The notes under the pieces: model-generated
Databases searched by the model: none
The model's input: only the letters and a program-made list of their open reading frames with translations
What the model was told of the DNA's origin: nothing
In this document: positions 25,192 through 61,127 of the stretch, piece by piece
How positions within the stretch are numbered: position 1 is the first letter of the stretch
How the letters are laid out: every line of letters begins with the position of its first letter
Translations under genes and position numbers: made by a program
DNA from: a virus
Taxonomy: Duplodnaviria; Caudoviricetes
DNA length: 64,000 nucleotides
Virus record (IMG/VR): IMGVR_UViG_3300032332_001510
Span: 1-64,000 of that record
Reading direction: 5' to 3' (one strand)

Positions 25192-25762
25192 GTTCTTTAC
25201 GCTTAGCCTCACAAAGTGTTTCTACACGATTGCTTACTTCTTCACTGTGTAACCACAAGTCTTTGTTTTCTAGCAAGCTGTCAATTTCCTTGCTAGTTAA
25301 AAAATCTTTGTAAATGTGTTGTAGGAATTGTCTAGACCACTCACGTTCAAAAACTGCTTGATCATAGATTTCACCACCCTTACCAAAGATTCCACCACTG
25401 TAGTTGTGAAACATAAATAAACTATGTGGAGTTACCTCAAACACATCGGCACATAAAAAGATCATTGTAGCAGCACTCATACAGCTGCCTTCAACACTAC
25501 ATACTACAGTAGCCGGTGTTTCAGCAAGTACGCGCATAAATTGTATTGCAGTGTTTAGGTCACCACCGCAACTATTGATATAAATTTTTACTACGTCTTG
25601 GTCACTAGCACTACGAATAGTATTAAACCATTCAATGTAATCCTCAGGACCAGTAATTAAACCACTTAAGTAAAATTCGTAAAGTGCACTAGTACATTTA
25701 CGAAACCCACGACTAATACCAGTGTCGAGGACAAAATCATCATCTGTTGCGTTTTTAGTCAT
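25157..25762 (-). CDS. clpP: ClpP-like serine protease
   Basis: YINSCGGD, GSCMSAA (Ser), MFHNYS (His), DLWL motifs. Confidence 0.85.
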   Translation of the reverse strand: MTKNATDDDFVLDTGISRGFRKCTSALYEFYLSGLITGPEDYIEWFNTIRSASDQDVVKIYINSCGGDLNTAIQFMRVLAETPATVVCSVEGSCMSAATMIFLCADVFEVTPHSLFMFHNYSGGIFGKGGEIYDQAVFEREWSRQFLQHIYKDFLTSKEIDSLLENKDLWLHSEEVSNRVETLCEAKRKEHDDSLSANLPN

Positions 25763-25774
25763 AGGAGTATTGTA

Positions 25775-25807
25775 TAAAAAAGCCCCCCTTGGTTACAAGG
25801 CGGGGGC
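25775..25807 (-). terminator. terminator at the 3' end of the tmRNA coding piece
   Basis: GCCCCCGCCTTGTAACCAAGGGGGGC-TTTTTT. Confidence 0.8.
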
Positions 25808-26075
25808 AGACCTCGGCACTAGCTTAAGCGGCTAGGGCAAATACCTCATCGTTGGCATTTATATAGTTTGCTTCTTTTGCGGAGATCGCCTACCGAGTTG
25901 TCCACTTGCATACTTATCACACTGTCGAAACCATGACTGGCCCATCAAAAGCACACCACACTTACAGAGGTAACACGTACCATGGCTATGCATCGCCTTA
26001 GTGTGCTTTTGGTGGACCAGGTGGGAGTCGAACCCACGTCCAGCGCGCCTTTCGGCTCGTTTCATACAACCATAT
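25780..26075 (-). ncRNA. ssrA: circularly permuted (two-piece) tmRNA: acceptor piece about 26075-26010, intervening segment 26009-25944, coding piece 25943 to about 25780
   Basis: T-arm GTGGGTTCGACTCCCAC then CTGGTCC-ACCA lies upstream of the GGGCCAG 5' end; stem has the G3-U70 Ala determinant; tag ORF 25856-25824 encodes ANDEVFALAA*. Confidence 0.93.
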
Positions 26076-26158
26076 AAAAATACTCTAGTTTGGATTCAAA
26101 CCTTGTCCTAGTATTGTCTACTTGCGTGTCTCACCACACCGACCAGAATATTTTTATA

Positions 26159-43999: not shown

Positions 44000-44237
44000 A
44001 AACACACCTTTACTAATTCAAAAATCCATGCTATAATATTGTTAAATCTAGTGAGGTTTAAACAAAGAAATTTTTTATAAGTAAACTAGAAAACACAAAA
44101 AAGTAAATTTTATAGCGTTTTCGCAGGCCTCGGTGTGAAACGCGTCGATAAAATTAACTTTTGCAGTTGACGAGTTTTTGAAGTTTATGCAATAGAAAAA
44201 ATTTCCTACAACTAAGGCAAATTGTTTCAAAAAATAT

Positions 44238-45035
44238 ATGCTAAAATTAAAATCTAATGAATTGAAATTGGTACCTTTTGAAGCTTACCACGACTTAAAA
44301 GGCGATGATTTGCTAAAGCAAGCAGAGGAGCATCAACTCAACCTGCTGGGATCATGGTTGCTGCCCCAAATTTGTGCATACTATGGTACTTGGCAGGCGG
44401 TCCCACTAGGCAACCACCCAACCCAACTAGACCCTAGGGCGACAGCAAAACAGAATATTCAAAGCAAGTGGGATCTAGGATTGTGGAGAGTATGTACCAA
44501 GCTAAAACGTGGAGCGCTAGTAAAAGTGCAGAGTAGTGAGCTGGGCAGAAACTATAGTCAACTTGTGCCACTCGTCATCGCCGGCATGAAACGCTATCAA
44601 AACATCCAGTACCAGCGTTGGGATTTAGGTGGATTAAACGGCCTAGTACACCAGGAACTATATGAAGTTATGGAGTATAGTGGCGAGTGTTTAAGTTTAG
44701 GGTCAGAGGAATTGCTCCAAATTCGCCAGCAAGGTTTGACTATTAGGTCAGGGGCTAAAGCTGGTGAGCAAAACAAGCCTACCAGCCAATGGAAGCTGCA
44801 CGGCCTAGCCACCACGGCCTTTCAGGGTACGCCAACACTGCTCAGCACCATTATGTGCCAGATCTGGGTTGCACATCCTAGTTTACGCACGGACATGATG
44901 ATCTTAGACCCTAGTGTATGGGACCATATGCCCAAGCCACTGGTCACCGGCGAAGCCTTTGCCGCTTTAGGGTCGAAAAAACAGGAAATTGTAACAATGC
45001 CCCAAACGGACGATAGAATGCCGTGGGAATACTAA
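44238..45035 (+). CDS. conserved T5-like hypothetical protein
   Basis: 265-aa ORF with typical phage codon usage. Confidence 0.7.
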   Translation: MLKLKSNELKLVPFEAYHDLKGDDLLKQAEEHQLNLLGSWLLPQICAYYGTWQAVPLGNHPTQLDPRATAKQNIQSKWDLGLWRVCTKLKRGALVKVQSSELGRNYSQLVPLVIAGMKRYQNIQYQRWDLGGLNGLVHQELYEVMEYSGECLSLGSEELLQIRQQGLTIRSGAKAGEQNKPTSQWKLHGLATTAFQGTPTLLSTIMCQIWVAHPSLRTDMMILDPSVWDHMPKPLVTGEAFAALGSKKQEIVTMPQTDDRMPWEY

Positions 45036-45047
45036 AAGGAGCAATAC

Positions 45048-45365
45048 TTGAAATATACTAAAGAAATTACTGACCGTTTAGTTGAACAATACAAAACAGG
45101 CACTCAAGTCCAAAAAATTGCGCAGGAGCTGGAGGTGCCGGAGCGTAGTGTAATTGCCAAGCTCAGCAGCTTGGGTGTTTACCAGAAAAAGCAGTACTTA
45201 AACAAACGCGGTGAAGTGCCTACAAAGAAGTCAGAGCACATAGAAAACATTGCTAAACTGCTCAAAATGGATGTAGAACTCCTAGAAAGTCTTGAAAAGG
45301 TCAATAAAGGTATCCTACAGGTCCTAGAAACCAAATTAAGTCACGAAAACTGTCAAAATCCATAA
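45048..45365 (+). CDS. A2-like HTH DNA-binding protein (paralogue 1)
   Basis: YT.E.T..L...Y..G......A..L....RSVIAKLS..GVY.KK.Y..K.GE pattern shared with three other ORFs. Confidence 0.7.
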   Translation: MKYTKEITDRLVEQYKTGTQVQKIAQELEVPERSVIAKLSSLGVYQKKQYLNKRGEVPTKKSEHIENIAKLLKMDVELLESLEKVNKGILQVLETKLSHENCQNP

Positions 45366-45376
45366 TCTGACCCTAA

Positions 45377-45412
45377 AGTGCCCCACGCAGCGCAAGTTGT
45401 GTGGGGCTTTTT
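45377..45412 (+). terminator. terminator of the + strand early operon
   Basis: GCCCCACGCAGC...GTTGTGTGGGGC-TTTTT. Confidence 0.8.
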
Positions 45413-45461
45413 ATTGGGTGACAACTTGCTGTGGTTTAGGGTCAGGCTTTAGAATTTGCAC

Positions 45462-45490
45462 TTGACAACATTGATTTTACACTGTATAAT
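45462..45490 (+). promoter_or_regulatory. perfect-consensus sigma70 promoter with no downstream ORF
   Basis: TTGACA (45462) -17- TATAAT (45485), followed by TTGGCGC as in the repeat elements. Confidence 0.75.
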
Positions 45491-45556
45491 ATTGGCGCAG
45501 CAGACTTAGTCAAAAAACAGACTACCTATTAAAATAGACTTTGTACTTAAACAGAC

Positions 45557-45596
45557 TAGTGAGTAAAACTATACAGCTATATAGTTTTACTCACTA
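45557..45596. repeat. perfect 17-bp inverted repeat
   Basis: TAGTGAGTAAAACTATA-cagcta-TATAGTTTTACTCACTA. Confidence 0.95.
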
Positions 45597-45654
45597 ATAA
45601 AATTTTAGTAATGTAAAAAATTGTTGCAATTTAGGGTCTGGTGTTTATTTCAGG

Positions 45655-46222
45655 CAAAACAAAACCCCGCTAAAGCCGTCGCCTTGCGGGGTTTTGAACT
45701 CTTACGAGTTTTTATGCGATATTGACTTAGTTTTCACAGAGATCGTCTGTTACGGTAACCTATCATTTCGCGGGGGAGTTTGCCATTATATGGTCTAGAA
45801 TGATATTTTGGCCAACTCGGTTCAGCCTATATTTTAACCAGCGGGCCTAACCGCTGGACAGCACTGCTCTAGTTGCACACCAGATTGAGGTTGCTTGGAT
45901 ACCGTCTAAGTTATTTACAAGTTCTAGACAACTTGGTAAGTTTGGGTATTTACAACCACCTGGGCTCCCAGAGGTAGCGAACCTTAGCAGTCCAGGATTT
46001 TAATTTTAGCTAAGGGCTGTGGCTCGGCTCTAACATAGATTCCCCACAATTAAGACGCTGCACCAAATGCGCGCCGCTGTCACCCATTCTTTCGACAGTC
46101 GTCAGTACTTGTACTTGGCACTACAGGTTGCTAGCTATACATTGGCTTGCTGGCGGGATAGTGGTACGTTGACTGGTATCTGCGCTTTGTCCTCTCGGAT
46201 AAGCTCTTTCCTAACTGTCTAT
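45655..46222 (-). ncRNA. candidate large structured non-coding RNA (about 560 nt)
   Basis: Own promoter (TTGAAA 46257 -17- TATAAT 46234) and terminator (45656-45695); no ORF of 60 aa or more on the - strand; many hairpins. Confidence 0.6.
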
Positions 46223-46282
46223 AATAATATTATACACTGTTGGGGAGAAGATTTCAAGACAAGATTTCTTCTCCCCGGTAGC

Positions 46283-46594
46283 TTAGGCCCCAAACTTCTC
46301 CACAAGCAGCTCCAGACCGCTCATGTTGCACTTCTCAAGGCTGGCAATTGCTTGAGGGTCAATATCAAACTTCGCTGCAATCTTGTTGATCAGGTCCATT
46401 TTAGTAACCCGGCCCTGACCCTTAGCCGCGGTTTTGGCCACATACACGCCTTCGCGTGAAAGCTTGGCCACAATCGACCGCACCGACTTGCCCATCTCTT
46501 CAGCAATCATTTCCACAGAATTGCCCGTGGTGTAAAGTCCGATAACGGTAGCGGTCTGCTCGGCGGTGTAGTTTACAGTTTTGTCAGTCATCAT
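46283..46594 (-). CDS. A2-like HTH DNA-binding protein (paralogue 2)
   Basis: KTVNYTAEQT...GKSVRSIVAKLSREGVY; T5 A2-like pattern. Confidence 0.75.
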   Translation of the reverse strand: MMTDKTVNYTAEQTATVIGLYTTGNSVEMIAEEMGKSVRSIVAKLSREGVYVAKTAAKGQGRVTKMDLINKIAAKFDIDPQAIASLEKCNMSGLELLVEKFGA

Positions 46595-46646
46595 ATGTCC
46601 TTTGTGTTTCGGTTTCTGCGCTGTTGAAGATTCTATTATACGCTGT

Positions 46647-46772
46647 TCAGAAGGGAATATCAAGATCAAAATTACTGGGGTCTGGCTCGGTTTGTGGATA
46701 CTGGGGATAATCGAAATGTTCGTTCCGCCAATCCTGCCACCATTCTTCTTGATCACTTTGAAAGTCATTCAT
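46647..46772 (-). CDS. 41-aa acidic peptide ending NFDLDIPF (not in ORF track)
   Basis: MNDFQSDQEEWWQDWRNEHFDYPQYPQTEPDPSNFDLDIPF*; GAGG RBS; dedicated TTGAAG-17-TATAAT promoter (46833-46805). Confidence 0.75.
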   Translation of the reverse strand: MNDFQSDQEEWWQDWRNEHFDYPQYPQTEPDPSNFDLDIPF

Positions 46773-46906
46773 TGTTTGGTTTCCCTCATCAATCTATAAA
46801 TAATATTATACAGACTCTAACCGGCCACTTCAACACTAAATTTATACACGTGGCACACCCAAGATTTTACACTAGTTTTCGCACTGGCGCGGGGGCTCCG
46901 CCCCCT

Positions 46907-46992
46907 GCACCAAGGTGGTGCATGGCCGCACCAAAGTGGTGCATGCCCCAACTTGGTGCGCCCCAAAATGGTGCATGCCCCAACTTGGTGCG
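46907..46992. repeat. GC-rich tandem repeat (2 x 32 bp plus a partial third copy)
   Basis: 46929-46960 and 46961-46992 differ at 2 positions; TGGTGCATG occurs three times. Confidence 0.9.
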
Positions 46993-47272
46993 CACCAGCG
47001 TGTTGCTCAGGGTTTACCCTATTAGGGAAAGTCCCTATGTTGTATTTTTGCCCGCACGCTTGACGCGGCCCCCAAAATTATGGTATAATTTTGGCGCCTG
47101 ATCGTTCTAAAATTTAGGATGACTCTAAGGGTTTACCCTAGTGTTGTATTTTCGCACCAGCCCTTGACACGCCGCCCATTATACTAGTATAATGGGCGCC
47201 ATTTTTCGTTTTATTTTTTATAATTATTTAATTAAAATAAAACCGGCAATTGCCGGTTTTATTAAACCTGGA

Positions 47273-47599
47273 TTAAATGGGTTTTGAATTTGCCAATGCG
47301 TCGAAAATTGCTTTTAGGGCAGATTTATTGCATTTGGTCAGGGATTCAATATCATTTTCTGGCAAACGCAGGATTGCGCCAATTGCATCAGCGTGCGCGT
47401 CTTTTTTAACGACCGGCTCGCCAGTTTTTGTTTTATAGGTTTTCTTTTCGTAAACCCCCTCGCGCGAGAGTTTAGCAACAATTGAGCGAACCGATTTGCC
47501 CATTTGAACGGCCAATTCTTCAACGGTAAAACCATTTTTGTAATCGGCAATCAGGTTAAGGGTTTGCTCAGGGGTATAGTTTACAGTCTTTTCAGCCAT
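47273..47599 (-). CDS. A2-like HTH DNA-binding protein (paralogue 3)
   Basis: Near-duplicate of 51794-52123. Confidence 0.8.
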   Translation of the reverse strand: MAEKTVNYTPEQTLNLIADYKNGFTVEELAVQMGKSVRSIVAKLSREGVYEKKTYKTKTGEPVVKKDAHADAIGAILRLPENDIESLTKCNKSALKAIFDALANSKPI

Positions 47600-47659
47600 T
47601 GCGTTTTCTCCAGTTAAGTTAATATTATACAGGGTTAGGATGGGTTAATCAAGTGCGAA

Positions 47660-48001
47660 TTATTCGTCGTCTAATTCGGCAAGGTAAATATTAGGCAAAT
47701 CAAATTTTTCGTCTAGTCTAATTGCCTGCAACACAAAATTAAACCCGTGAAATTCGCTGATATTATTTTCTTGTTGCCAAGCGTGAATCAATTCGTGCGC
47801 AATCAATTCGTCCAGCGTGCGCGGTGAATTAGCGTTTTGATTGCCCAGGAATACGGTAATTTTATGCGCTTTTAGATTACCTTTATTGGAAAATTTAGGA
47901 TAATAAACTGCGTCCATTGCTTTATGGGCTTTGGTTTTAAGTGTTAATTCTACGGGGCTTTTCAGCCCCAGGAATTCAATGTAATATGCTAAATTTTCCA
48001 T
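47660..48001 (-). CDS. SprT-like zinc metalloprotease domain protein
   Basis: AHELIHAWQ (HExxH) and downstream HG..F. Confidence 0.7.
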   Translation of the reverse strand: MENLAYYIEFLGLKSPVELTLKTKAHKAMDAVYYPKFSNKGNLKAHKITVFLGNQNANSPRTLDELIAHELIHAWQQENNISEFHGFNFVLQAIRLDEKFDLPNIYLAELDDE

Positions 48002-48002
48002 T

Positions 48003-48704
48003 TTAGATTGCCTTGTAAAAATCTTTGACTTGGAATTGCTTCCAGTTATGTGCAATGATATTGTCACGCCAATTGCGACGTTTTAGAATGTTTACCAGAA
48101 TTGGCAATTCAAAGTCTTGTGCATCCTCAAGCGCAGTATGTGGCTCTTCAACAAATTGACCATTCAAAAACGCAAAAACAGATTCGGCAGTAGTTTTAAT
48201 GGACATATTGCCATGCTTAGTCGGAGCATTGAATAGATGATTTTGCAATGCAAATTGACGATATGCTTTTTTGCAGATATTGCCAATAGCGGCTTGCCAA
48301 AGACAAAACGATTCTGCAAAACCCGACAAATCAATGCCGGTATTAGCACATTTTTGTTTATCAAAAGCCAGATTGTAAGCGGTTAATGTAGGATTGTATT
48401 TGCCAATGGCTTTTTGAATCCACGCATTGATTGCGGCAACAGAAGCCATTTGCCGCGAACCTGAATCAAGCATTGCAAAGTATTGAGTTTGCTTTTTGCT
48501 TGCGTATTCACGCGACCACATTTCCGAATTGGGTTTAGTTTTGTCATAGAATAGATCCATTGCATCAAAATGATTGCGAACCAATACCGCGCATTTTGCA
48601 TAGATGCGACCGTTACGATCGCAAATAACAATTGCAAAATCTGCAACGGTATCGTTGCAAGTGGTTTCAGTGTCGAGAATTGCGAAAAACTGCTTTTTAG
48701 CCAC
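48003..48704 (-). CDS. DEDDh 3'-5' exonuclease
   Basis: LDTETT, AYNLAFD, PHTALEDAQDFE motifs. Confidence 0.85.
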   Translation of the reverse strand: MAKKQFFAILDTETTCNDTVADFAIVICDRNGRIYAKCAVLVRNHFDAMDLFYDKTKPNSEMWSREYASKKQTQYFAMLDSGSRQMASVAAINAWIQKAIGKYNPTLTAYNLAFDKQKCANTGIDLSGFAESFCLWQAAIGNICKKAYRQFALQNHLFNAPTKHGNMSIKTTAESVFAFLNGQFVEEPHTALEDAQDFELPILVNILKRRNWRDNIIAHNWKQFQVKDFYKAI

Positions 48705-48965
48705 GATAGATAGGGGTTAGCCAGGGCACGTCGCCCAAGTCATAACTATACACGAATTTTTGGCTCATGCCAAGATTTGCAAAAATACAACATAGGGGTT
48801 TTCCCCTATTGACAAAAAAATTTTGCCGTGGTAAAATTTTGGCGCGTCAGCTGTTGTAAAAATACAACAGCACAAAAAATTTACGAAATTTTTCTTGACG
48901 CGGCCCAAAATTATATGTTATAATTTTGGCGCCATGTGTTGTAAAAATACAACACATTTCGTTAT

Positions 48966-49629
48966 TTAAGTTAAATACACCCGGAATTCAATGCCCATTG
49001 CAGAGCGAAAATGCAATTCGTCATATTCCTGGCTTAATTTCTTGCAATCTTTAATGCTAAAATAAGGGCCATCAATAATCTTAAAATCTAGCCCATTAAC
49101 CCAATCGTTCCAATTGGCCTTGCGGCCATAAGCACCACAACAATCTAAAATGTCATAATTCAAAAAATCCATGATCAATCCTAAAGTGTAAGTGAACCGT
49201 AGGGAATACCCAATTGGAATTCTAGGAAACCAATATCACCATCAGTACCCATTTCCTGGTCAATCCAATTAACAGCCTGATTCCAATCAAAACCATGCAT
49301 TTCTTGCAATTGCGTGATTCGAGCCTTTACATTCTCAAATTCGGCCAATTCCTCGCTCATGCGTTGTGCATTAGCACGATCGGCAATAATATACAATTGG
49401 TCAATTTCAGATTCAAATTGCTCAACTGTCCAGGTACTGGTATCAATACCACGCGGCCGCACATTGTGCGCATCCTTGTAAGCATCCCAGTAAACGCTAG
49501 CCAATTGTTCCAACTGGGTTAATTCATTCCATGCTTTCATTATACAGCCCCAATAAAGGTTAGGTAAGCAACAGCGCAAACGCTGGCAATCAGCGCATAA
49601 AAAACAATTTTGTCTGGATCATTAGTCAT
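48966..49629 (-). other. three small pre-early ORFs (48966-49178, 49181-49540, 49540-49629 single-TM)
   Basis: Coupled start/stop junctions downstream of the HAD gene. Confidence 0.6.
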
Positions 49630-49630
49630 T

Positions 49631-50110
49631 TTAGTGTCCTTGTTTGCTTGGAATATATTCACCGCGAATATTGAAATAATCGCATACCGCTTTAAGATAT
49701 TGCACGTTATCCTCATAGAAAACAACGTCATCCATCATTGCCAAGTTAATATTAGCAGTTTGAAAGCATTTAATCAAACCGTTAATTTTTAGCGTTGAGC
49801 CAGATTGAAAATCGTCGCTAGTACGCGAGATAACATAATCAGGAACCCCTAGTACGTCACGCATAAATTGCCAATCTGGATCATTCATTACACGCGCAGT
49901 AGCGATAATCGTGTAACATTCAGCGTCCATGCAATCGCGTTTATATTTATCAGCCAATGGCAATAAGCCATCCAGCATTGCCAAGTGCTGATTATCTCGC
50001 CAAAAGCCAATATCAATGCGCTCACCTGCGTCGGTGAGAACAGTGCGATAACGGTGGCTTGAATCCACGATAGTGCCGTCCATGTCATAAATTGCTACTC
50101 GCTTAATCAT
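49631..50110 (-). CDS. HAD-family phosphatase (possible dmp-like nucleotidase)
   Basis: YDMDGT motif I, TAR motif II, YEDN motif IV. Confidence 0.8.
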   Translation of the reverse strand: MIKRVAIYDMDGTIVDSSHRYRTVLTDAGERIDIGFWRDNQHLAMLDGLLPLADKYKRDCMDAECYTIIATARVMNDPDWQFMRDVLGVPDYVISRTSDDFQSGSTLKINGLIKCFQTANINLAMMDDVVFYEDNVQYLKAVCDYFNIRGEYIPSKQGH

Positions 50111-50279
50111 TTTGTTTGCCTGCGTTGTGTCCATGTAGAGAATTATACACGAAAAATCGGGTTGTGCCAGGAAGTGCAAAAATACAACAGTAGGGGAAAC
50201 CCCTATTGACACGCCCCAAAATTATGTGGTATAATTTTGGCGCCGCAGGTGTTGTAAAAATACAACACCTGCCCGTTAT

Positions 50280-50974
50280 TTATTCAATAACGAATTCCAA
50301 TTTACGTTTTACGGTAATTGGATCTACCTCAAACCATTCTAAATCATCAAAATCATCATCGGTCAATTCAAAACCAAATTGCAAGTCTTGCCAGACTTCC
50401 TCAATTGAATTACCCATTGAGGTGATAGTATCGTCATTAATGCTTTTAGCCATAAACATAATCATTCTCCTTTACCAAAAAATTGTGCAACGTCAACCAA
50501 GTGTTTAGCAGTACGCTCAATGCGTTTTACTAGTGCCTCATAATCCAATTCCATCATCTCATGCATTTTAACAGATTCCACAAAATAAATCAATTCGTCA
50601 CGCTTTAACTGCGACGTTTCGAATTTAGCGGCTTCCTCAATCAATTTGAATTTATTCACCTTCAAACCCCCAACCATTAAACAGTTTAGCCAATTTGCTA
50701 TGCTTTTTATTAGGAATAACCTTAGGCTTAAATGGGCTATTCACAAACAGTGGTTTATGCGCCCTAGCATCGGGCTTGCTGGCTTTTTGCATTGCCAATA
50801 CCAAGTGCAGTTTAGTTTTCATAATTGTGCCTCAACCCACAATTGCTGTTTCAGTTTATTATTCAAGTTATTAAATACCTTGAAAAAACTATTGCAAACC
50901 AAATCCTTTGGCTGAGTTTGCAATTGTTTTTTCAAGAGGCTAATAACGGCTAGTTGTGCGCGAGTAGTTTTCAT
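50280..50974 (-). other. four small pre-early ORFs (50280-50465, 50462-50659, 50652-50822, 50819-50974)
   Basis: Overlapping stop/start junctions; the last two were translated by hand; promoter TTGCAT-17-TATAAT at about 51005-51033. Confidence 0.6.
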
Positions 50975-51200
50975 CTGTTTGCTCTGCGTTGCGTCCATGT
51001 AGAGAATTATACACGCTTCAACAGACTATGCAAGCGACCAGGGTGCGACATATTGACGCAGGGATTTTAGTATGATTATAGATCCTAGTAGGGTAACCCC
51101 TAGTGTTGTATTTTTGCACGCGGCCTTGACACGGCCCCAAATTATATGCTATAATTTGGCGCCAGCGGTGTTGTTTTTTTTTTTGCAACACCTGATCGTT

Positions 51201-51407
51201 TTAAATTACATAATTAACAATGCCTATGCAATTGGCAATTAAGAATGCGCCATTTAATGTACCCAATGCTTTATCCCTACGCATTAGTGCAATTGTCAGC
51301 CAGGATATTGATCCGGTAATAAAGCAGATATATCCCCAATCCATTATGCCCATTGCAACCAGAAAAGATCCCGCTATGCTGGTGATAGTGCCAATCCATG
51401 CTAACAT
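51201..51407 (-). CDS. small 3-TM membrane protein
   Basis: 68 aa, almost fully hydrophobic. Confidence 0.7.
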   Translation of the reverse strand: MLAWIGTITSIAGSFLVAMGIMDWGYICFITGSISWLTIALMRRDKALGTLNGAFLIANCIGIVNYVI

Positions 51408-51769
51408 TATAATTCCATGTCGTGATAAGTATTAGGGGTCGCGCCATAGTTTAGCATAATATCTTGCCAAGATTTACCATGCCAACGATTACCTGCTGGT
51501 GTGCCATTAAGATTATAGTCAACCTGATGCGCTATTTCATGGACCATGATCTCAGCCAACATTCTATCATAATTGCGATTAAAAAATTTAGTACCAAGAT
51601 CTATTACGTTAGCTTCCATAAAGCAACGGCCCGCGGTCTTGGTCAGTCTGTTATTAAGTTTAATAACGGGCATTGGAAATAGTGTAAGCCTAGTGTAGAT
51701 GTTAGTATAACGAACCCATATCTTAGCCGCTTCAGCCTGAATCGTGGCATTTAATGTGTTGGCATTCAT
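51407..51769 (-). CDS. SprT-like zinc metalloprotease
   Basis: N.RLTKTAG.C, VHEIAHQV, HGKSWQ.IM...G motifs. Confidence 0.85.
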   Translation of the reverse strand: MNANTLNATIQAEAAKIWVRYTNIYTRLTLFPMPVIKLNNRLTKTAGRCFMEANVIDLGTKFFNRNYDRMLAEIMVHEIAHQVDYNLNGTPAGNRWHGKSWQDIMLNYGATPNTYHDMEL

Positions 51770-51793
51770 GGGTTCGTTATCCTACAAAATCAA

Positions 51794-52123
51794 TTACAGA
51801 GGTTTGCTATTAGCCAATGCTTCAAAGATCGCTTTTAATGCGCTCTTATTAGCCTTAGTTAGCGATTCTACGTCATTCTCAGGCAAGCGAAGGATCGCGC
51901 CAATTGCATCAGCGTGTGCATCCTTTTTAACAACGGGTTCTCCCGTTTTGGTTTTGTATTCTTTTTTCTGGTATACGCCCTCGCGGGAAAGTTTTGCAAC
52001 AATGCTACGAACGGATTTACCCATTGCCATAGCCAATGCTTCAACGCTAACACCAGACTGGTAGTCAGCGACCAGAGTCAGGGTTTGCTCTGGGGTATAG
52101 TTTACCATTTTTTCTGAGGCCAT
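51794..52123 (-). CDS. A2-like HTH DNA-binding protein (paralogue 4)
   Basis: SVRSIVAKLSREGVYQKK...KKDAHADAIG...DVESLTKANKSAL, matching the T5 A2 pattern. Confidence 0.8.
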   Translation of the reverse strand: MASEKMVNYTPEQTLTLVADYQSGVSVEALAMAMGKSVRSIVAKLSREGVYQKKEYKTKTGEPVVKKDAHADAIGAILRLPENDVESLTKANKSALKAIFEALANSKPL

Positions 52124-52463
52124 TTTGCGTACTCCTTAGTGCGCTGTTTCGATGTAGTAATTATAGGCTAGTCAGCCGCACAATGCAAGCCCAAAATCAC
52201 AAGCTCGTTAGACTATTTTGTTATAGACACAGACTGACTTATAACAAATGAGCATGAGCGACTTACTTGCGCGGGCCTAGAATTTTGTGGTATAATATCC
52301 TGCGCGGATTCCGTTCTCTTGCCGCAAATTATTATAATTTGTGATATAGTTATAGGCTATGATATGAATAGGGCGGTTATTAGACATTATATTTTGTATA
52401 ACGATATTGGCCCACCCACACGGCCAACTTTAAGAAAATCTCCACAAAACTTTCGGTGCCAAA

Positions 52464-52601
52464 CTACATCATAAGTATGCGCATTATACCTAAAAACGCC
52501 AACCATAACATAAATCCGTATACTAATACCGCTAACAACCAACCTTTTATAATTACTATTAATATTAAAATAGCTAATACTAAACCAATTAAAATTTGCA
52601 T
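52464..52601 (-). CDS. 45-aa fully hydrophobic membrane peptide (not in ORF track)
   Basis: MQILIGLVLAILILIVIIKGWLLAVLVYGFMLWLAFLGIMRILMM*. Confidence 0.6.
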   Translation of the reverse strand: MQILIGLVLAILILIVIIKGWLLAVLVYGFMLWLAFLGIMRILMM

Positions 52602-52605
52602 ATAA

Positions 52606-52755
52606 TTACCAATGATGTATTACACCCAGCACAATTACTAAATTTGTCAACAAATAGCTTAACACTATAAGGGTTCTAATCCAACAAACTACGTCAGCCT
52701 CACTATCAGTCAAACCATACTTGTCGCCTAATGCCTTTGCCCACAGTCTCCACAC
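52606..52755 (-). CDS. 49-aa membrane protein of a common aquatic-phage family (not in ORF track)
   Basis: MWRLWAKALGDKYGLTDSEADVVCWIRTLIVLSYLLTNLVIVLGVIHHW*; GGAG RBS; promoter TTGAAT-17-TATAAT (52804-52776). Confidence 0.75.
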   Translation of the reverse strand: MWRLWAKALGDKYGLTDSEADVVCWIRTLIVLSYLLTNLVIVLGVIHHW

Positions 52756-52839
52756 TATATTCTCCCAAAAACAATATTATATCACTAAAACTAAACAAAT
52801 TCAAGAAAATTTTTTCAAACACCACAAAATATTCGTAAC

Positions 52840-52868
52840 TTGACACTGCTGCCCTAAAGTGTTATACT
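52840..52868 (+). promoter_or_regulatory. sigma70-type promoter for the plcP/agt/terminase operon
   Basis: TTGACA-17-TATACT. Confidence 0.8.
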
Positions 52869-52890
52869 CTAGTAAACTGGAGGGGTAACC

Positions 52891-53043
52891 ATGGAAATTA
52901 TCGAACTAATGCTAAAAGCTTGGCCAGTATTTGTGGCCTTTATTATGATTGTGGTCCTTTTCGCCAAAGCAGACATGCGCCTAGGCGTGTTGGAAGACAA
53001 AGTAAAAACCCTATTCGACCTGTACAATAAGTCTGGCAAATAA
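52891..53043 (+). CDS. 50-aa TM plus coiled-coil protein (not in ORF track)
   Basis: MEIIELMLKAWPVFVAFIMIVVLFAKADMRLGVLEDKVKTLFDLYNKSGK*; GGAGGGG RBS. Confidence 0.75.
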   Translation: MEIIELMLKAWPVFVAFIMIVVLFAKADMRLGVLEDKVKTLFDLYNKSGK

Positions 53044-53045
53044 CT

Positions 53046-53834
53046 GTGGCACACTACCGCGCCATTTTTATCAGTGACGTGCACTTAGGTACCAAAGCTA
53101 GTAAAGCTGAGTATTTGAGTAGTTTCCTAAAAACCAATACCTGCGATGAACTTTACTTGGTAGGCGATATTATCGATGGTTGGAAGGTCAAGCAAAATAA
53201 GTTACGCTGGACTAATCAACACACCAATGTAGTCAGACACGTTTTAGCCAAAGCCAATCGTGAAAAGACCCGAGTAGTCTATGTAGCCGGTAATCACGAC
53301 GAGTTTCTTAGACCACTAATCACCTATGGATTACAATTTGGTCGTATAGAGGTGGTAAACCAGTGTGAATACGTAGACTTTAATGGTCGCCGCTGGTTAG
53401 TAACTCACGGCGATATGTTTGACGGCATTACACGCCTAGCACCTTGGTTAGCTTGGTTAGGTGACAGTGCTTATGACTTCGTACTAGGTTTAAACACACA
53501 CTTTAATCAGTGGCGGCATCGTTTAGGCTTTGGCTACTGGAGTCTATCACAGTGGCTAAAGTCTCGAGTAAAGCGCGCAGTAGATTTTATCTTTAAGTTC
53601 GAGCAAACTATTACCCAGTATGCACACAAGCGCAAGTTTTTTGGTGTAATCTGTGGTCATATTCATCAGGCTGAAATTAAACTGGTCGGTGATATTGGCT
53701 ATATGAATAGTGGCGATTGGGTTGAAAGCTGCACTGCACTGGTAGAGCATGAAAATGGTGTGTGGGAAATAATTACTTGGAGGCCTAAAGATGTGGTTAC
53801 TAATCATCTTAGCAGTACATCAGATGGACCCTAA
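53046..53834 (+). CDS. PlcP-like phospholipase C / LpxH-family metallophosphoesterase
   Basis: ISDVHLG, VGDIIDGW, GNHDE, HGDMFD, YWSLS, CGHIH, NSGDWVESCTALVE. Confidence 0.88.
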   Translation: MAHYRAIFISDVHLGTKASKAEYLSSFLKTNTCDELYLVGDIIDGWKVKQNKLRWTNQHTNVVRHVLAKANREKTRVVYVAGNHDEFLRPLITYGLQFGRIEVVNQCEYVDFNGRRWLVTHGDMFDGITRLAPWLAWLGDSAYDFVLGLNTHFNQWRHRLGFGYWSLSQWLKSRVKRAVDFIFKFEQTITQYAHKRKFFGVICGHIHQAEIKLVGDIGYMNSGDWVESCTALVEHENGVWEIITWRPKDVVTNHLSSTSDGP

Positions 53835-53964
53835 GGACGTGCCAGGCCGGGTAACCTTAGAATTCCGTACAGAACAGGAATGCTTGGCTGCACAACATAG
53901 CCTACAGTACCAGCTTAAGTTTCCACAATTTAGGGTTATAGCACAATGTCAAAAACAATATTAA
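53791..53964 (+). CDS. 57-aa exported peptide with two Cys (not in ORF track)
   Basis: MWLLIILAVHQMDPKDVPGRVTLEFRTEQECLAAQHSLQYQLKFPQFRVIAQCQKQY*; GGAGG RBS at 7 nt spacing. Confidence 0.7.
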   Translation: MWLLIILAVHQMDPKDVPGRVTLEFRTEQECLAAQHSLQYQLKFPQFRVIAQCQKQY

Positions 53965-54947
53965 TAGTAACTGATAATGAGCCCCAGCAAATTAACGGCG
54001 TGGTTACAACGTTCCACAACCTGGAACGTTGGGCAGATCGCCATGGCTACGAGTTTGTATATTGTGATCCCCGGCAGTTCCCTAATTGTGGCGCTCCTGG
54101 CTATGGCGATATTAGGCTATCGTGGCCTAGTAAAATTGGCCAAATACTTGAGGGGATAAACCCTGATTACGTACATATTGCGACGGAGGGGCCGCTGGGG
54201 CTAGCAGCCCGTTGCTGGATGGATCGGCATGGTTGGCGATATAATACCAGCTATCATACTAAAATACCAGAAGCCTTAAAACGCTACTATGGCATACCAG
54301 AATCTTGGACTTATCGTTACCTGCGCTGGTTTCACAAGCACAGTGGCAAGGTTTTAGCTACTACGGTCAGCATGGTAGACGAGCTTAAGCAACAGGGCTT
54401 TTCCGGAACTATTGTGCCCTGGACGCGTGGCGTAGATCGCCAGCAGTTTTATCCGCTGGAGCATGGGCGTAAAACACCATATCCAACACTCTTATGGGTT
54501 GGCAGAGTTGCCCCCGAAAAGTCTTGCGAAGACTTTTGCCAGCTAGACTACTTGGGTGCTAAAAAGATTGTGGTTGGTGATGGGCCACAACTAAAGTATT
54601 TAGCGGCAAAATATCCTGAAGTCCAATTTGTGGGTATGCAAACCGGCGATGCACTAGCCAGCTACTATCAACAAGCAGATTGCTTGGTTTTTACCAGTCG
54701 CTGGGATACTTTTGGTATAGTAATGTTAGAGGCCATGGCGTGTGGTACACCTGTGGCAGCTTACCCAGTTTGTGGTCCCAAAGACGTTATTGAACTAGAC
54801 AGAACTGGCTATACTAGTCCAGATCTTAAATTAGCCGTGGCACGTGCACTGGCAATTCCCCGTCACGTAGTAGTCGTAGCCAGCTATCGTTGGTCGTGGG
54901 AAAAATGCTGGCAGATATTTGAATATAATCTAGTAAGGAGACTGTAA
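53946..54947 (+). CDS. GT4 glycosyltransferase, Agt/MgdA-like glycolipid synthase
   Basis: ILIVTD..QINGVV.T, HIATEGPLG, SYHTK.PE, WTRGVD, GRVAPEK, DTFGIVMLEAMACGTPVAAYPV. Confidence 0.88.
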   Translation: MSKTILIVTDNEPQQINGVVTTFHNLERWADRHGYEFVYCDPRQFPNCGAPGYGDIRLSWPSKIGQILEGINPDYVHIATEGPLGLAARCWMDRHGWRYNTSYHTKIPEALKRYYGIPESWTYRYLRWFHKHSGKVLATTVSMVDELKQQGFSGTIVPWTRGVDRQQFYPLEHGRKTPYPTLLWVGRVAPEKSCEDFCQLDYLGAKKIVVGDGPQLKYLAAKYPEVQFVGMQTGDALASYYQQADCLVFTSRWDTFGIVMLEAMACGTPVAAYPVCGPKDVIELDRTGYTSPDLKLAVARALAIPRHVVVVASYRWSWEKCWQIFEYNLVRRL

Positions 54948-59195: not shown

Positions 59196-61127
59196 ATGGT
59201 AGATAAAAATAAAGTAATTACCCTAACCAGTACATTTACTAAGAGCAATCTACCTACCAAAGACATTAGCATTGATTCGATTATGATTGAAGGTTACGCA
59301 AGTACCATTGATACTGATCGTCAAGGCGATATTGTGCCTAGTACAGTATGGAAAAGTGGTGTGCAAAATTACTTGAAAAATCCAGTAATCTTAGCATATC
59401 ATGATCATAGTGAGCCTATTGGTAGAATGGTAGATCATAGAATTGATGGTAAAGGTTTATGGATTAAAGCACGAATTTCTGCAGCTGCAGGAGAGGTGTT
59501 TAATCTTATCAAAGACGGAGTACTTACTGCGTTTAGTATTGGTTTTCGTATCGCTGATGCGGAATATAATGCAGCCACAGAGCTGTTTGTTGTTAAAGAA
59601 CTGGAACTACATGAGATTTCAGTAGTGTCCGTACCTGCTAATCAAAACACACTATTTAGTTTGTCTAAGTCGTTTAAAACCGACGAAGAAGTTAAGTCTT
59701 TTAAACTGCAATTTGCGCCCAAGTTAGAATCAGCTAAAGGGCTAGAGTCCACAATGGAAGCAAATGGCGACACTACAAAGGAATGGAAAATGGATCCTAA
59801 AGACCTAGAAAAATTGCTTGCCGATACAGCTCGTCAAGCTGCTGTTGAAACAGCAAAAGCTCTTGCTGAACAGCAAGCCCAAGCTGCTGTTGAAAAAGCA
59901 GCACAAGATCGCGCTCAAGCAGAACTTGACGCAAAAATCAAAGCCGCTGTTGCACAGGTGCAAACAGTTGACACAGGTGCAGAGCGTCTACTTGCAGAAG
60001 TTGAAAAGCGTGTTGCTGAACAAGAGCAATCACACAAGTCAGTTATTGCTGGTCTAGAAGCTACACTCAAAGAAAAAGCTGCTGAACTCGAAGCCATTCA
60101 GAAGTCACGTATGCAATTTGCTGCTGATGGTAGCAACAATGCAATGACTTATGCTGAAAAAGAAAAAGCAGTTCTTTTAGCTAAAATGGCTAACAAGGGT
60201 CTTGAGGACACCAAGTTTGGTCGTGGAATGGTTGAAAAGTATGGTGCACATGTACCAAGTGCTACTTGGGAACTAGAAGTTAGCATGAGTATGGAAGCTG
60301 AGGTTCGTCGCCGCCTAGTTGTTGCACCATTATTCCGTCAGATTGCTATGCAAACTAACGTAATGAAGATTCCAGTTAATCCAGAAGCAGGTACAGCTCA
60401 GTGGATTGATAATGCTAATTTTGGTACATCAACAAGTGGCGGTAATAATGCTACTCATGCACTAAAAGAGATTACACTCAGCGCATATAAAATTGCTACC
60501 AACGAGTACACAGCTTATGAAGAAGAGGAAGATAGCCTTATCGCTATTATGCCTGTAATTCGTGATGGCATGATTCGTCGTGTTGCTCGGGGAGTTGACA
60601 AAGGATTCCTACGTGGAGCAGGTGCTACTAGCGGCGATCCTATCAGCGGTCTAGTAACACTAGCTGGTACTTCAGGTCAAGTTGCAAACTCTAGCAGTGG
60701 TGCAGCGTTTACTGTTGCTAACCTACGTAATCTACGTAAGGGCCTTGGAGTTTGGGGCCTTGATCCAGCAGATGTAGTTTATATTGTTGATACAACAACA
60801 TACTACAATCTACTTGAGGATTCAGTATTTCAAACAATGAACCAAGTTGGTCCACAAGCTACATTACTAACTGGTCAGATTGGTCAGATTGGTAATTCAC
60901 CAGTACTAGTTTCTGGTGAGTTTGTAGGAACTGGAGCAAGTGGTAGTATTGCTGGTGTTTGCGTTGCACCAGGTAACTTTATTGTTGGTAATCAGCGCGG
61001 TCTCCGCATTGATACACAAGAACTAGTTGAGACACAGCGTCGCGTTATGGTTGCTAGCTTACGTACAGGCTTTGCACAAGTTACAAGCAACTATGGTTCT
61101 GGCGTTACATCACTCAAGTATACTTGA
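59196..61127 (+). CDS. prohead protease-scaffold-major capsid protein fusion
   Basis: IEGYAST, HDHSEPIG, FSIGF, EISVVSVPAN protease motifs; Ala/Glu/Lys coiled coil; HK97-fold capsid half; single uninterrupted ORF. Confidence 0.92.
   Translation: MVDKNKVITLTSTFTKSNLPTKDISIDSIMIEGYASTIDTDRQGDIVPSTVWKSGVQNYLKNPVILAYHDHSEPIGRMVDHRIDGKGLWIKARISAAAGEVFNLIKDGVLTAFSIGFRIADAEYNAATELFVVKELELHEISVVSVPANQNTLFSLSKSFKTDEEVKSFKLQFAPKLESAKGLESTMEANGDTTKEWKMDPKDLEKLLADTARQAAVETAKALAEQQAQAAVEKAAQDRAQAELDAKIKAAVAQVQTVDTGAERLLAEVEKRVAEQEQSHKSVIAGLEATLKEKAAELEAIQKSRMQFAADGSNNAMTYAEKEKAVLLAKMANKGLEDTKFGRGMVEKYGAHVPSATWELEVSMSMEAEVRRRLVVAPLFRQIAMQTNVMKIPVNPEAGTAQWIDNANFGTSTSGGNNATHALKEITLSAYKIATNEYTAYEEEEDSLIAIMPVIRDGMIRRVARGVDKGFLRGAGATSGDPISGLVTLAGTSGQVANSSSGAAFTVANLRNLRKGLGVWGLDPADVVYIVDTTTYYNLLEDSVFQTMNQVGPQATLLTGQIGQIGNSPVLVSGEFVGTGASGSIAGVCVAPGNFIVGNQRGLRIDTQELVETQRRVMVASLRTGFAQVTSNYGSGVTSLKYT

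Follow-up and report, generated by a model that had tools for sequence, protein, structure and literature searches.

In the promoter-early stem-loop (PeSL) elements of T4-type phages, the promoter is followed by a ribosome-binding site and by the start of a co-oriented gene (PMC4122927). In phage lambda, the short antisense RNA made from the convergent promoter pO acts in an RNase III-dependent manner, and pO also reduces transcription from pR through collisions between polymerases (PMC3985674). The promoter classes of phage T5 are reportedly distinguished mainly by their discriminator (PMC7472727). The major single-strand interruptions of T5 DNA read R/GCGCRGG (PMC3517423; AY543070 features), and an 18-bp palindrome directly follows the nick located inside the terminal repeat (AY543070). 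Here, we compare a repeated promoter-hairpin (P-H) module with these systems.

The window, a stretch of 64,000 nucleotides, is part of a 77.6-kb IMG/VR contig from an uncultured T5-like phage of a lake. The module region contains a Dmp homologue and four A2-family paralogues and therefore matches the T5 pre-early region. Its genes had been described as leftward and some of their products as A2-like, and both descriptions hold; T5 A2 defines phrog_1725, to which the window paralogues are matched. The leftward genes and cassettes are as follows.

46283..46768, minus strand: A2-family paralogue, 161 aa (phrog_1725, phrog_323)
47273..48704, minus strand: cassette of three ORFs, given in the next three lines
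47273-47599, minus strand: A2-family paralogue, first listed ORF of this cassette
47660-48001, minus strand: weak SprT-like ORF
48003-48704, minus strand: conserved 233-aa protein
48966..50110, minus strand: cassette of a 70-aa ORF, a 132-aa ORF and the Dmp homologue
49631-50110 (extended to 50212 in the ORF list), minus strand: Dmp homologue, 40% identity to T5 Dmp, E 2e-14
50107..50151, minus strand: repeated leftward -10 and 5′ leader module; second copy at 50971-51015, 84% identical
50280..50998, minus strand: cassette of four small ORFs (61, 71, 56 and 59 aa), the 59-aa ORF being absent from four close relatives
51201..52123, minus strand: cassette of a 68-aa membrane-like protein, a 120-aa protein and an A2-family paralogue (51794-52123)

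Six rightward modules are found at 47023-51192 and a seventh starts at 45462. Their layout consists of an A/T-rich upstream tract, TTGACA, an 18-nt spacer, TGnTATAAT, TTTGGCGC(C) and a perfect hairpin. The units and their parts are listed below.

45462..45499, plus strand: P0, the seventh unit, TTGACA-17-TATAAT-ATTGGCGCA; no -10 palindrome and no ORF behind; aimed at the 3′ end of a non-coding leftward transcription unit; conserved in close relatives
47023..47049, plus strand: E1 upstream module, TAGGG..CCCTA hairpin and TGTTGTATTTTT, terminator-like for rightward transcripts
47060..47098, plus strand: E1 promoter; -35 47060-47065, palindrome 47072-47094, -10 47084-47089, GGCGCC 47093-47098
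47126..47155, plus strand: E2 upstream module, TAAGGG..CCCTA hairpin and GTGTTGTATTTTCGC; about 30 nt downstream of the E1 start and thus a likely stop for the E1 transcript
47164..47200, plus strand: E2 promoter; -35 47164-47169, perfect 26-bp palindrome 47173-47198, -10 47188-47193, GGCGCC 47195-47200
47236..47263, either strand: bidirectional terminator-like palindrome (-17 kcal/mol, z -3.9) between E2 and the stop of the leftward A2-like gene 47273-47599
48779..48808, minus strand: E3 upstream module, TAGGGG hairpin, then leftward TGTTGTATTTTTGC; minus-strand terminator-like site 48809..48792, with the shape of an intrinsic terminator for leftward mRNA; adjoins the next leftward promoter 48773..48745
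48809..48871, plus strand: E3, TTGACA-17-TAAAAT, GGCGCG 48841-48846, hairpin 48850-48871; no -10 palindrome
48895..48957, plus strand: E4; -35 48895, palindrome 48905-48929, -10 48919-48924, GGCGCC 48928-48933, hairpin 48934-48957 with T-rich tail; convergent gene stop at 48966
50174..50205, minus strand: E5 upstream module, TAGGGG hairpin and T-rich tail, terminator-like for leftward mRNA; leftward promoter 50170..50142 directly after it
50206..50272, plus strand: E5, TTGACA-18-TATAAT, palindrome 50216-50240, GGCGCC 50239-50244, 12-bp hairpin 50245-50272 (z -6.9); convergent gene stop at 50280
51089..51117, plus strand: E6 upstream module, TAGGG..CCCCTA and GTGTTGTATTTTTGC
51126..51192, plus strand: E6, TTGACA-18-TATAAT, palindrome 51137-51159 with both arms one base shorter, GGCGCC 51158-51163, hairpin 51165-51192; convergent gene stop at 51201

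Every item of the first-pass annotation was recovered at its position, with some corrections to how the parts are assembled. It had counted six elements; these are present, and P0, a seventh unit of the class, lies outside the range that it covered. The rightward TTGAC(A/G)-18-TATAAT promoters of E1, E2, E4, E5 and E6 and the TTGACA-17-TAAAAT of E3 match 11-12 of the 12 consensus positions, and GGCGC(C/G) stands 2-3 nt after every -10. In the whole contig, GGCGCC itself has five occurrences, all of them at these units. Inverted repeats enclose the -10 in E1, E4, E5 and E6, as does the perfect palindrome in E2. The modules are repeated, as had been noticed, and conserved, although the set of shared parts is not complete in the unit at 48809, in which the -10 palindrome is missing. 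TGTTG..CAACA hairpins are located at 48850, 48934, 50245 and 51165. Of the TAGGG(G)..CCC(C)TA hairpins, which occur in both orientations, those at 47023, 51089 and 47126, the last with an additional A, point rightward and the two at 48793 and 50191 leftward. The 12-mer AAAAATACAACA has seven exact copies (47038 on the minus strand, 48781, 48858, 48943, 50178, 50256 and 51104 on the minus strand), the near copy already noticed at 47142 and another at 51169, and none elsewhere in the 64-kb window; shuffled sequences gave 2.3 matches on average and at least nine in 0/100. Its copies are real but do not form a single part, since the 12-mer is either the T-rich tail of the TAGGGG hairpin or the loop plus one arm of the downstream hairpin.

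The six units are the best sigma-70 sites of the 77.6-kb contig, where only three other sites are of equal quality. These rightward promoters carry all sigma-70 signals and, as had been noticed, have no ORF and are aimed at the 3′ ends of leftward operons. Indeed, no ORF was found behind any unit in the window. The rightward ORFs listed behind two of the units only mirror genuine leftward genes in antisense, and those apparent downstream ORFs that we examined were artefacts or over-extended. The distance from GGCGC to the convergent stop is 32-72 nt in the window. The core is present in more than 119 IMG/VR contigs. We surveyed 78 related loci with 245 modules, using the conserved 233-aa gene as the orientation reference. 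All 245 units lie on the strand opposite this gene, a count that does not represent independent events because the relatives share ancestry. A convergent ORF is faced by 202 of the 245, with a median GGCGC-to-stop distance of 91 nt. In five complete relatives (99-124 kb), the units are restricted to one strand of a single region of 5-7 kb, apart from one exception with one mismatch. TG is found at -15/-14 in 166/175 units, the region upstream of the units is A-rich, and GGCGC is nearly invariant (117 of 118 units picked via the palindrome alone). The promoters of real genes in this genome have ATTA or ATAT after the -10, whereas the units have TTTGGCGC(C), showing that they form a separate promoter class.

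The RNA that would follow P is predicted to fold strongly. The downstream hairpin is perfect, has 8-20 bp and begins about 4 nt after GGCGC; the 80 nt downstream of the units fold at -21.5 kcal/mol as compared to -11.1 in shuffles, and the window hairpins have z values of -2.5 to -6.9 and T-rich tails. On the other strand, the leftward RNA 50287-50172 across E5 has three hairpins and a terminator-shaped end (-48.8 kcal/mol, z -7.3).

Thus, the best host-type promoters of a T5 relative have a hairpin but no gene behind them and stand head-on to its earliest gene blocks. Judging from the sequence, we tentatively favour an explanation in which they are dead-end sigma-70 promoters that would fire short hairpin RNAs against the leftward operons and bracket the cassettes. 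P is a full-consensus host sigma-70 promoter with the nearly invariant TTTGGCGC(C) as its class-specific discriminator and start region, and the P-H module sits in the spacer between leftward early operons, always aimed against them. Host RNA polymerase would dock at P once this DNA enters the cell, and the only product would be a 35-70-nt hairpin RNA that does not reach the stop codon of the facing operon. Together with the hairpin and the neighbouring TAGGGG terminator, the polymerase, whether docked or firing, may form a bumper closing each leftward operon, possibly by transcriptional interference and antisense pairing to the three-hairpin 3′ end of the operon, in the manner of lambda pO/oop. 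The GC-rich discriminator could give the units a timing different from that of the ATTA-class gene promoters. The modules, being repeated homologous patches, would also favour gain, loss and reordering of cassettes. Against this explanation, the predicted RNA, in contrast to oop, has no overlap with the facing coding sequence, an ordinary terminator would suffice for ending an operon, and terminator-like tails are at least as common in the gene direction (59%) as in the P direction (35%). The bumper model leaves unaccounted for the invariance of GGCGC and the requirement that the -10 lie in a palindrome.

The palindromes bear on two other explanations. The -10 lies within a 10-11-bp inverted repeat, and a 24-bp inverted repeat spans -24 to -1, the classic position of a repressor site. 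With four A2-family genes in the same region, the palindrome could be an operator for one of these DNA-binding A2-family paralogues, much as the first-pass annotation had proposed; alternatively, the units could be polymerase-binding sinks, occupancy rather than the transcript being what matters. Full-consensus promoters tend to hold polymerase, which also speaks for such protein switches. We nevertheless regard them as unlikely. Five kinds of matched changes in both arms, including substitutions, deletions and insertions, preserve the palindrome, and differing, internally matched palindromes coexist in one genome (E2 and E6 versus E1, E4 and E5; likewise at locus L066), which argues for arm-to-arm pairing rather than a fixed half-site. 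The proteins are indeed of the A2 family, but their operator role is thereby weakened, even though arm-to-arm templated repair could produce matched changes in a true operator. Moreover, the palindrome is wholly absent from about a third of the units, and 6-19 sites per genome are too few to titrate the polymerase of a cell. The pairing of the arms also suits a somewhat less probable explanation at the DNA level. GGCGC would be a strand-specific nick site of the T5 type (R/GCGC), the two flanking palindromes would form snap-back hairpins or cruciforms that serve in the staged entry of DNA, in priming replication or in duplicating the terminal repeat, and the promoter would load polymerase or open the DNA. 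The sequence and palindrome of the T5 nicks, the invariance of GGCGC and the restriction of the units to the region matching the T5 terminal repeat all favour it. So do the hairpins, which show 2274 Watson-Crick pairs as compared to 10 G.T and 10 A.C mismatches, without strand bias, and have loops flipping orientation between close relatives. These features also count against the favoured explanation, since they do not single out the hairpin as P-strand RNA and a DNA-level role would fit it equally well. However, T5 nick sites are not promoter-like, are dispersed genome-wide and precede RGG, whereas the units are clustered and their GGCGC precedes C, G or A. Relative to the putative nick, the right arm of the palindrome ends at no fixed place, and the conserved -35, 18-nt spacing and TG motif would have no purpose in a pure nick/hairpin model.

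The predicted transcripts could also act otherwise than on the facing operon. Trans-acting 35-70-nt hairpin RNAs, made in abundance, might target a host factor, for example by decoying a defence nuclease or sponging up an RNA chaperone or RNase. Strong promoters without ORF, in multiple copies per genome, within a T5-like host-takeover gene region, would suit such RNAs, as would the conservation of hairpin stem sequences within clades. They are nonetheless improbable, as clades have different families of hairpin sequences, loops can flip freely, no Rfam family matches and nothing links the RNA to any target. More doubtful still is long rightward transcription, in which leaky or overridden hairpins would allow antisense RNA across the early cassettes into the rightward PlcP/Agt and terminase genes, turning early genes off and later ones on. 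All units aim toward the terminase side, and the three TAGGGG modules of the window oriented to stop rightward RNA suggest rightward read-through. In addition, a strong U tail in the P direction is missing from many hairpins. However, the rightward genes are served by a strong promoter of their own at 52840, and the position of the hairpin after GGCGC and the T-rich tails in the window better fit short RNAs. The only case in which a unit seemed to precede the terminase genes was not confirmed. The units could finally be mainly recombination modules, that is PeSL-like portable homology persisting by cassette shuffling with little regulatory role. Shuffling is clear, with breaks more frequent where a module sits, in line with the suspected recombination-prone boundaries. 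Gene order between modules varies among related phages, the 78 loci having 72 architectures. Adjacency is less conserved for gene pairs that have a module between them (0.42 versus 0.63, p 2e-11), and pairs never split form tight modules (g5-g2 0/49, g8-g4 0/38). Close relatives differ in unit number and in the small genes beside units, and contigs of co-occurring relatives have a common 41-nt core with differing flanks, a weak hint only. As a main role, recombination is just as doubtful as long transcription: homology alone requires neither a perfect -35, -10 and TG nor an invariant GGCGC or a fixed orientation against the genes, and some rearrangements have no unit at the junction. Relatives with proteins of only about 60% identity still share the conserved core, indicating purifying selection on the sequence itself.

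Overall, the favoured dead-end promoters resemble several known systems in part. Like the PeSLs of T4-type phages (PMC2839356, PMC4122927), they combine a repeated intergenic stem-loop with a near-consensus sigma-70 promoter in a plastic early region and are tied to gain, loss and reordering of small-gene cassettes; in E1, E2 and E6, a stem-loop even stands just upstream of the promoter in the same direction. However, PeSL phages are T4-like and this phage is T5-like, the -10 palindrome, invariant GGCGC and perfect downstream hairpin are features of the units only, and a Shine-Dalgarno sequence and start codon follow the PeSL promoter, whereas the units oppose genes. By that definition, the units are not PeSLs, as no co-oriented gene lies behind the promoter. 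In the T5 temporal promoter classes (PMC7472727), host sigma-70 also reads all promoters and a few bases after the -10 differ; the ATTA/ATAT gene promoters of this genome resemble the T5 early ATATT, as opposed to the TTTGGCGC of the units. The T5 classes all drive genes, and the annotation of the T5 stretches examined has no GC-rich class without ORFs. The T5 single-strand interruptions (R/GCGCRGG; AY543070, PMC3517423) belong to the same phage lineage, GGCGC fits R/GCGC, and a palindrome follows both the terminal-repeat nick and the GGCGC of the units. In contrast to the units, whose nick is only putative, the T5 sites are not promoters, are scattered genome-wide with two inside genes, and have a following RGG and a GTAA(T/C) motif about 35 nt upstream. 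The T5 first-step-transfer repeats (IRC/IRD, injection stop signal; Davison, bioRxiv 10.1101/866236) are likewise dispersed direct and inverted repeats and palindromes in untranslated pre-early DNA, better conserved than neighbouring ORFs, but they are based on DnaA boxes, are not promoter-like, form one inverted pair and have no sequence similarity to the units. Lambda pO/oop has no sequence relationship to the units either and is a single unit, whereas here there is one per operon and 6-7 in the genome; oop overlaps the 3′ end of the cII coding sequence, whereas the RNA predicted for the units stops before the stop codon. In both cases, a promoter stands head-on to an early operon, with a short, terminated, non-coding RNA as its product in lambda and as its predicted product here.

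Six rightward promoter-hairpin modules (units E1 to E6) occupy 47023-51192, and all motifs that the first-pass annotation had listed for them were found where it had placed them. The 12-mer AAAAATACAACA is present in seven exact copies plus two with one mismatch, all confined to 47038-51180; none of 100 shuffled sequences reached nine matches. Six rightward sigma-70 sites agree with the consensus at 11-12 of 12 positions. The whole contig contains just three more sites of such quality, one of which, at 45462, is a further member of the class. The 77.6-kb sequence has five GGCGCC sites, all located 2-3 nt past the -10 box of a unit.

Each unit can be described as an upstream hairpin (T), a promoter (P) and a downstream hairpin (H). 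The T module, a short hairpin rich in GC (TAGGGG/CCCCTA) with a TGTTGTATTTTTGC tail, is shaped like an intrinsic terminator. Two copies, at 48793 and 50191, are oriented leftward and abut the next leftward promoter; there they read as terminators for the operon on their right. In the copies at 47023, 47126 and 51089, this module of about 30 nt is inverted. Alignment of 204 unique copies of the P module gave a consensus consisting of an A-rich upstream tract, cTTGACac, a GC-rich stretch, ccaaaatt.TaTGg, TATAAT and TTTGGCGC. The spacer is 18 nt long in 165 of these copies, and a TG is found at -15/-14 in 166 out of 175. The H module is a perfect hairpin (median 12 bp, 6-nt loop) starting 4 nt past GGCGC. 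The 12-mer AAAAATACAACA plays two roles, as the tail of T and as the loop plus one arm of H. Inspection by eye found no match between it and DnaA boxes, a feature of the T5 injection stop signal.

Other repeats were seen near the units. Behind the unit at 45462, the segment 45500-45600 carries four (C/T)AGACT motifs spaced by about 17 bp and a palindrome with 20-bp arms (45557-45596); it has no ORF and an iteron-like look. Just left of E1, a cluster of GCACCA-N3-TGGTGC palindromes spans 46888-46997, with exact copies at 46907 and 46928 and degenerate ones up to 46990; it is unaligned in several close relatives. A degenerate unit-like site, CTTGCG-17-TATAAT with the TG and without GGCGC, is found at 52262-52296(+), in the spacer that precedes the A2-like gene 51794-52123.

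The window corresponds to bases 1-64000 of a linear IMG/VR virus contig measuring 77,645 bp, for which CheckV estimates 73% completeness. It contains a leftward replication block (RNR, SbcC-like, PolA, DnaB, helicase), tRNAs with a permuted tmRNA, and rightward packaging and head genes, the large terminase being 50% identical to TerL of T5-like vibriophages. Small leftward genes lie at 46.2-52.8 kb, between the replication and the packaging/head blocks. They include a Dmp homologue (40% identity to the T5 protein, E 2e-14) and three leftward paralogues of the T5 A2 family, a fourth being located at 45048(+). These paralogues match phrog_1725, the family defined by T5 A2, with E-values of 1e-6 to 2e-5. 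T5 likewise has dmp, A1 and A2 in leftward orientation within its left terminal repeat (AY543070). Dmp and A2 homologues are thus found inside leftward small-gene operons, a trait of T5-like pre-early (first-step-transfer) regions, and homology to the left terminal repeat of T5 makes the label "pre-early, A2-like" chosen in the first-pass annotation a reasonable one.

Further observations concern the gene content. For the Dmp homologue (49631-50212(-)), the ATG at 50110 is the probable start; the longer ORF, begun by a GTG, enters E5. A segment of about 565 nt without ORF or Rfam match (45656-46222(-)) separates a leftward promoter (46257..46229) from a bidirectional terminator (45650-45690). 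The tmRNA gene (25733-26102(-)) is of the permuted, two-piece type, encodes the tag ANDEVFALAA and adjoins phage tRNA genes; it could be a clue to the host group. At 59196-61127(+), one ORF of 643 aa has matches to head-maturation protease as well as major head protein families, as a fusion. In the run that probably yielded the contig of the window, a 337-nt contig corresponding to 47678-48014 is covered about twice as deeply as its neighbours (34.6 vs 16-17).

Relatives were retrieved with the conserved 233-aa leftward product of 48003-48704, giving 77 IMG/VR loci at 59-96% identity, hence 78 loci with the window. These loci hold 245 units, all of them opposite in strand to the gene for the 233-aa protein. 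In five complete relatives (99-124 kb), the unit core is present in 3-7 copies within a single region of 5-7 kb and on one strand, the only exception being a single copy with one mismatch. Searched alone, the core pattern was found in more than 119 IMG/VR contigs among the matches listed. Among the cultured phages of INPHARED, megablast, tblastn and blastn gave no match to the region, the 233-aa protein or the unit, beyond trivial 30-nt promoter-like hits. Overall, the element class is real and conserved; as far as we found, it is not described in the literature searched.

The units drive no recognizable gene. A convergent ORF is faced by 202 of the 245 units, the distance between GGCGC and the stop codon having a median of 91 nt, and none of the apparent unit-driven ORFs followed up among the exceptions held. 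In one related locus (L034), the last unit seemed to drive the terminase genes; the 322-aa ORF concerned is over-extended, and TerS corresponds to its last 164 aa only. In four others (L010-L013), the apparently driven family (g12) has low-complexity translations that look like antisense shadows of a leftward gene. In the window, ORF 51220-51435(+) is spurious, since the leftward 68-aa ORF that it overlaps has 44 homologues, and ORF 50206-50508(+), which covers leftward ORFs 50280-50465 and 50462-50677, is presumed spurious. An 11-codon ORF begins in the predicted E4 transcript and in that of no other unit. The idea that a unit boosts a divergent neighbouring leftward promoter was rejected, there being no such partner at 45462 or at the second units of doublets. 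Avoidance of GGCGCC outside the units was likewise discarded: its five copies in this contig are all in units, but 1-5 copies lie outside the region in the five complete relatives.

The sequence following the -10 box distinguishes the units from the promoters of genes. In this contig, gene-driving promoter-like sites have ATTA or ATAT directly after TATAAT, among them those of the replication block, the genes at 38-44 kb and several leftward cassettes.

Examples of gene-driving promoters with TATAAT followed by ATTA or ATAT
6148, (-) strand
10758, (-) strand
20700, (-) strand
36154, (-) strand
38850, (+) strand
40187, (+) strand
46833, (-) strand
47652, (-) strand

The units have TTTGGCGC in place of ATTA/ATAT, and GGCGC is present in 117 of 118 units chosen by their palindrome alone. 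The temporal classes of T5 promoters are reported to differ mainly in the discriminator, early promoters having ATATT after the -10 box (PMC7472727). The sequence TATAATATATT was seen in two annotated T5 early promoters. The gene-driving promoters of this contig have the discriminator type of T5 early promoters. The existence of a distinct discriminator class is the best argument for P being a working promoter type under its own control, and makes a chance or purely structural element unlikely. It also supplies a simple sequence rule, GGCGC versus ATTA, for sorting the promoters of this phage group. A third promoter type was seen in two cassettes (50107-50151 and 50971-51015), which share a leftward -10 and 5′ leader module (TATAAT-TCTCTACATGG...) that is 84% identical between them.

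About two thirds of the units carry a 10-11-bp inverted repeat, the right arm of which is formed by the -10 box plus TTTTGG. Changes in one arm are accompanied by changes in the other.

Changes in the arms of the inverted repeat around the -10 box
Right-arm TACAAT with left-arm ATTGT: 5/5 (Fisher p 1.6e-6)
Right-arm TTTCGG with left-arm CGAAA: 3/3 (Fisher p 1.1e-6)
One base lost in both arms: 11 matched vs 2 unmatched (Fisher p 1.7e-15)
One base gained in both arms: 5 matched vs 3 unmatched (Fisher p 4e-8)
Right-arm TATTGG with left-arm CCAATA: 16 matched; 1 with the left-arm change only

Variant and canonical palindromes can be found within a single genome. Together with the matched changes, this coexistence argues for pairing between the two arms, whether at the DNA or the RNA level. 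Such pairing could reflect selection of a hairpin or arm-to-arm templated repair. Conservation of the TG in the loop of the palindrome reveals promoter constraints on the same bases. The inverted repeat overlaps the core promoter, as a repressor operator does, and the first-pass annotation had proposed operators for the A2-like proteins. The same half-site is not found at all sites of a genome, and an operator with a fixed half-site is weakened by variant, internally matched palindromes within one genome.

The transcripts that P would produce were then considered. In the window, the predicted rightward RNAs consist of a single hairpin (z -2.5 to -6.9) with a T-rich tail, and at E4, E5 and E6 their predicted ends fall 7-9 nt short of the facing stop codon. 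Read leftward, the 3′ end of the operon mRNA is predicted to form three hairpins closed by the T terminator (-48.8 kcal/mol, z -7.3). Rfam covariance models gave nothing near the gathering score in 44000-54000. Over all H stems, 2274 Watson-Crick pairs were counted, and the mismatches comprise 10 G.T versus 10 A.C. Folding of the whole region is slightly better for the gene-direction strand (0.8 kcal/mol, p 0.004), yet the equal numbers of G.T and A.C assign H to neither strand. In the clade of the window, H loops are A-rich in 12 cases and T-rich in 13, and close relatives show the same stem with a flipped loop. T-rich tails occur in both directions and are commoner in the gene direction; across relatives, 35% of the units have at least six T in 8 nt in the P direction. 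Given the Watson-Crick stems, the flipping loops and the two-way tails, a role of the RNA on the P strand is not proven.

The first-pass annotation had also viewed the elements as recombination-prone cassette boundaries. Clustering of 1682 ORF products from the 78 loci gave 72 distinct architectures of the region. Some pairs of ORF families are never split by a unit (g5-g2, 0/49; g8-g4, 0/38; g6-g0, 0/28), and the order of such unsplit blocks varies between relatives. Conservation of neighbouring pairs is 0.42 when a unit splits them versus 0.63 when unsplit (Mann-Whitney p 2e-11, kinship being ignored). Between close relatives, which share about 80-85% DNA identity, the number of units varies, as do small genes adjoining them. 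The lower conservation of split pairs would fit the boundary proposal, and some indels terminate at units, but other indels terminate elsewhere. A PeSL-like shuffling role fits these data as a correlation, uncorrected for shared ancestry. Joints in metagenome contigs, which end in unit cores in 6 of the 15 listed, were not used as evidence; at 90% likeness they may reflect relatives or repeats.

We tentatively favour, at a little under even chance, a reading of the units as dead-end host promoters of a separate class. Transcription from P would yield a short hairpin RNA directed at the end of each leftward operon, and the units would serve as bumpers between cassettes, with shuffling as a by-product. 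This dead-end promoter model is without an account of the invariance of GGCGC or of the need for a palindrome at the -10 box. A T5-type nick motif is retained as a rival. The major single-strand interruptions of T5 occur at R/GCGCRGG (PMC3517423; AY543070 features), and the GGCGC of the units contains R/GCGC. Moreover, an 18-bp palindrome immediately follows the terminal-repeat nick of T5 (AY543070), which the succession of GGCGC and a hairpin resembles. However, GCGC is followed by RGG in T5 and by C, G or A in the units, and the T5 sites are dispersed over the genome whereas the units are confined to one region of 5-7 kb. The T5 sites are also not promoter-like. All four annotated major nick sites (AY543070) carry (C/T)GTAA(T/C) 34-36 nt upstream of R/GCGC(A/G)GG, an association that may already be known. 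A reading in which the modules are dual-use DNA sites appears improbable. Host polymerase would be loaded at a full-consensus promoter adjacent to the T5-type nick motif G/GCGC, the palindromes flanking this motif would form DNA hairpins, and these polymerase-marked stations, spread along the first-entering DNA, would control the stages of genome entry or serve as primers for duplicating the long terminal repeat. The nicks of T5-like phages, long unexplained, would acquire a mechanistic function if this reading were true.

In a widespread group of uncultured freshwater phages, the strongest promoters of host type lead into no gene and are directed against the earliest operons. If these promoters fire, dead-end convergent promoters would be used systematically, one per operon. 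To our knowledge, such a layout is known only from single cases, for instance lambda pO/oop. Two old puzzles of T5, the purpose of the nicks and the organisation of first-entering DNA, gain a testable handle from the connection with the T5 nick motif and with palindromes kept by matched changes.

Among known systems, the nearest structural analogue of the units is the PeSL of T4-type phages (PMC4122927). As in PeSLs, a near-consensus sigma-70 early promoter lies in an intergenic spacer, and a TAGGGG stem-loop of variable orientation is found just 5′ of the promoter in five of the six units. The likeness drawn in the first-pass annotation therefore holds for the promoter and the upstream stem-loop but fails for one defining feature, the downstream gene: the PeSL promoter is followed by the Shine-Dalgarno sequence and start codon of a co-oriented gene (PMC4122927), whereas no ORF follows P. 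The nearest working analogue is lambda pO/oop (PMC3985674). The oop RNA overlaps the coding 3′ end of its target whereas the unit hairpins end before the stop codon; as in the lambda system, the unit promoters are convergent on early operons.
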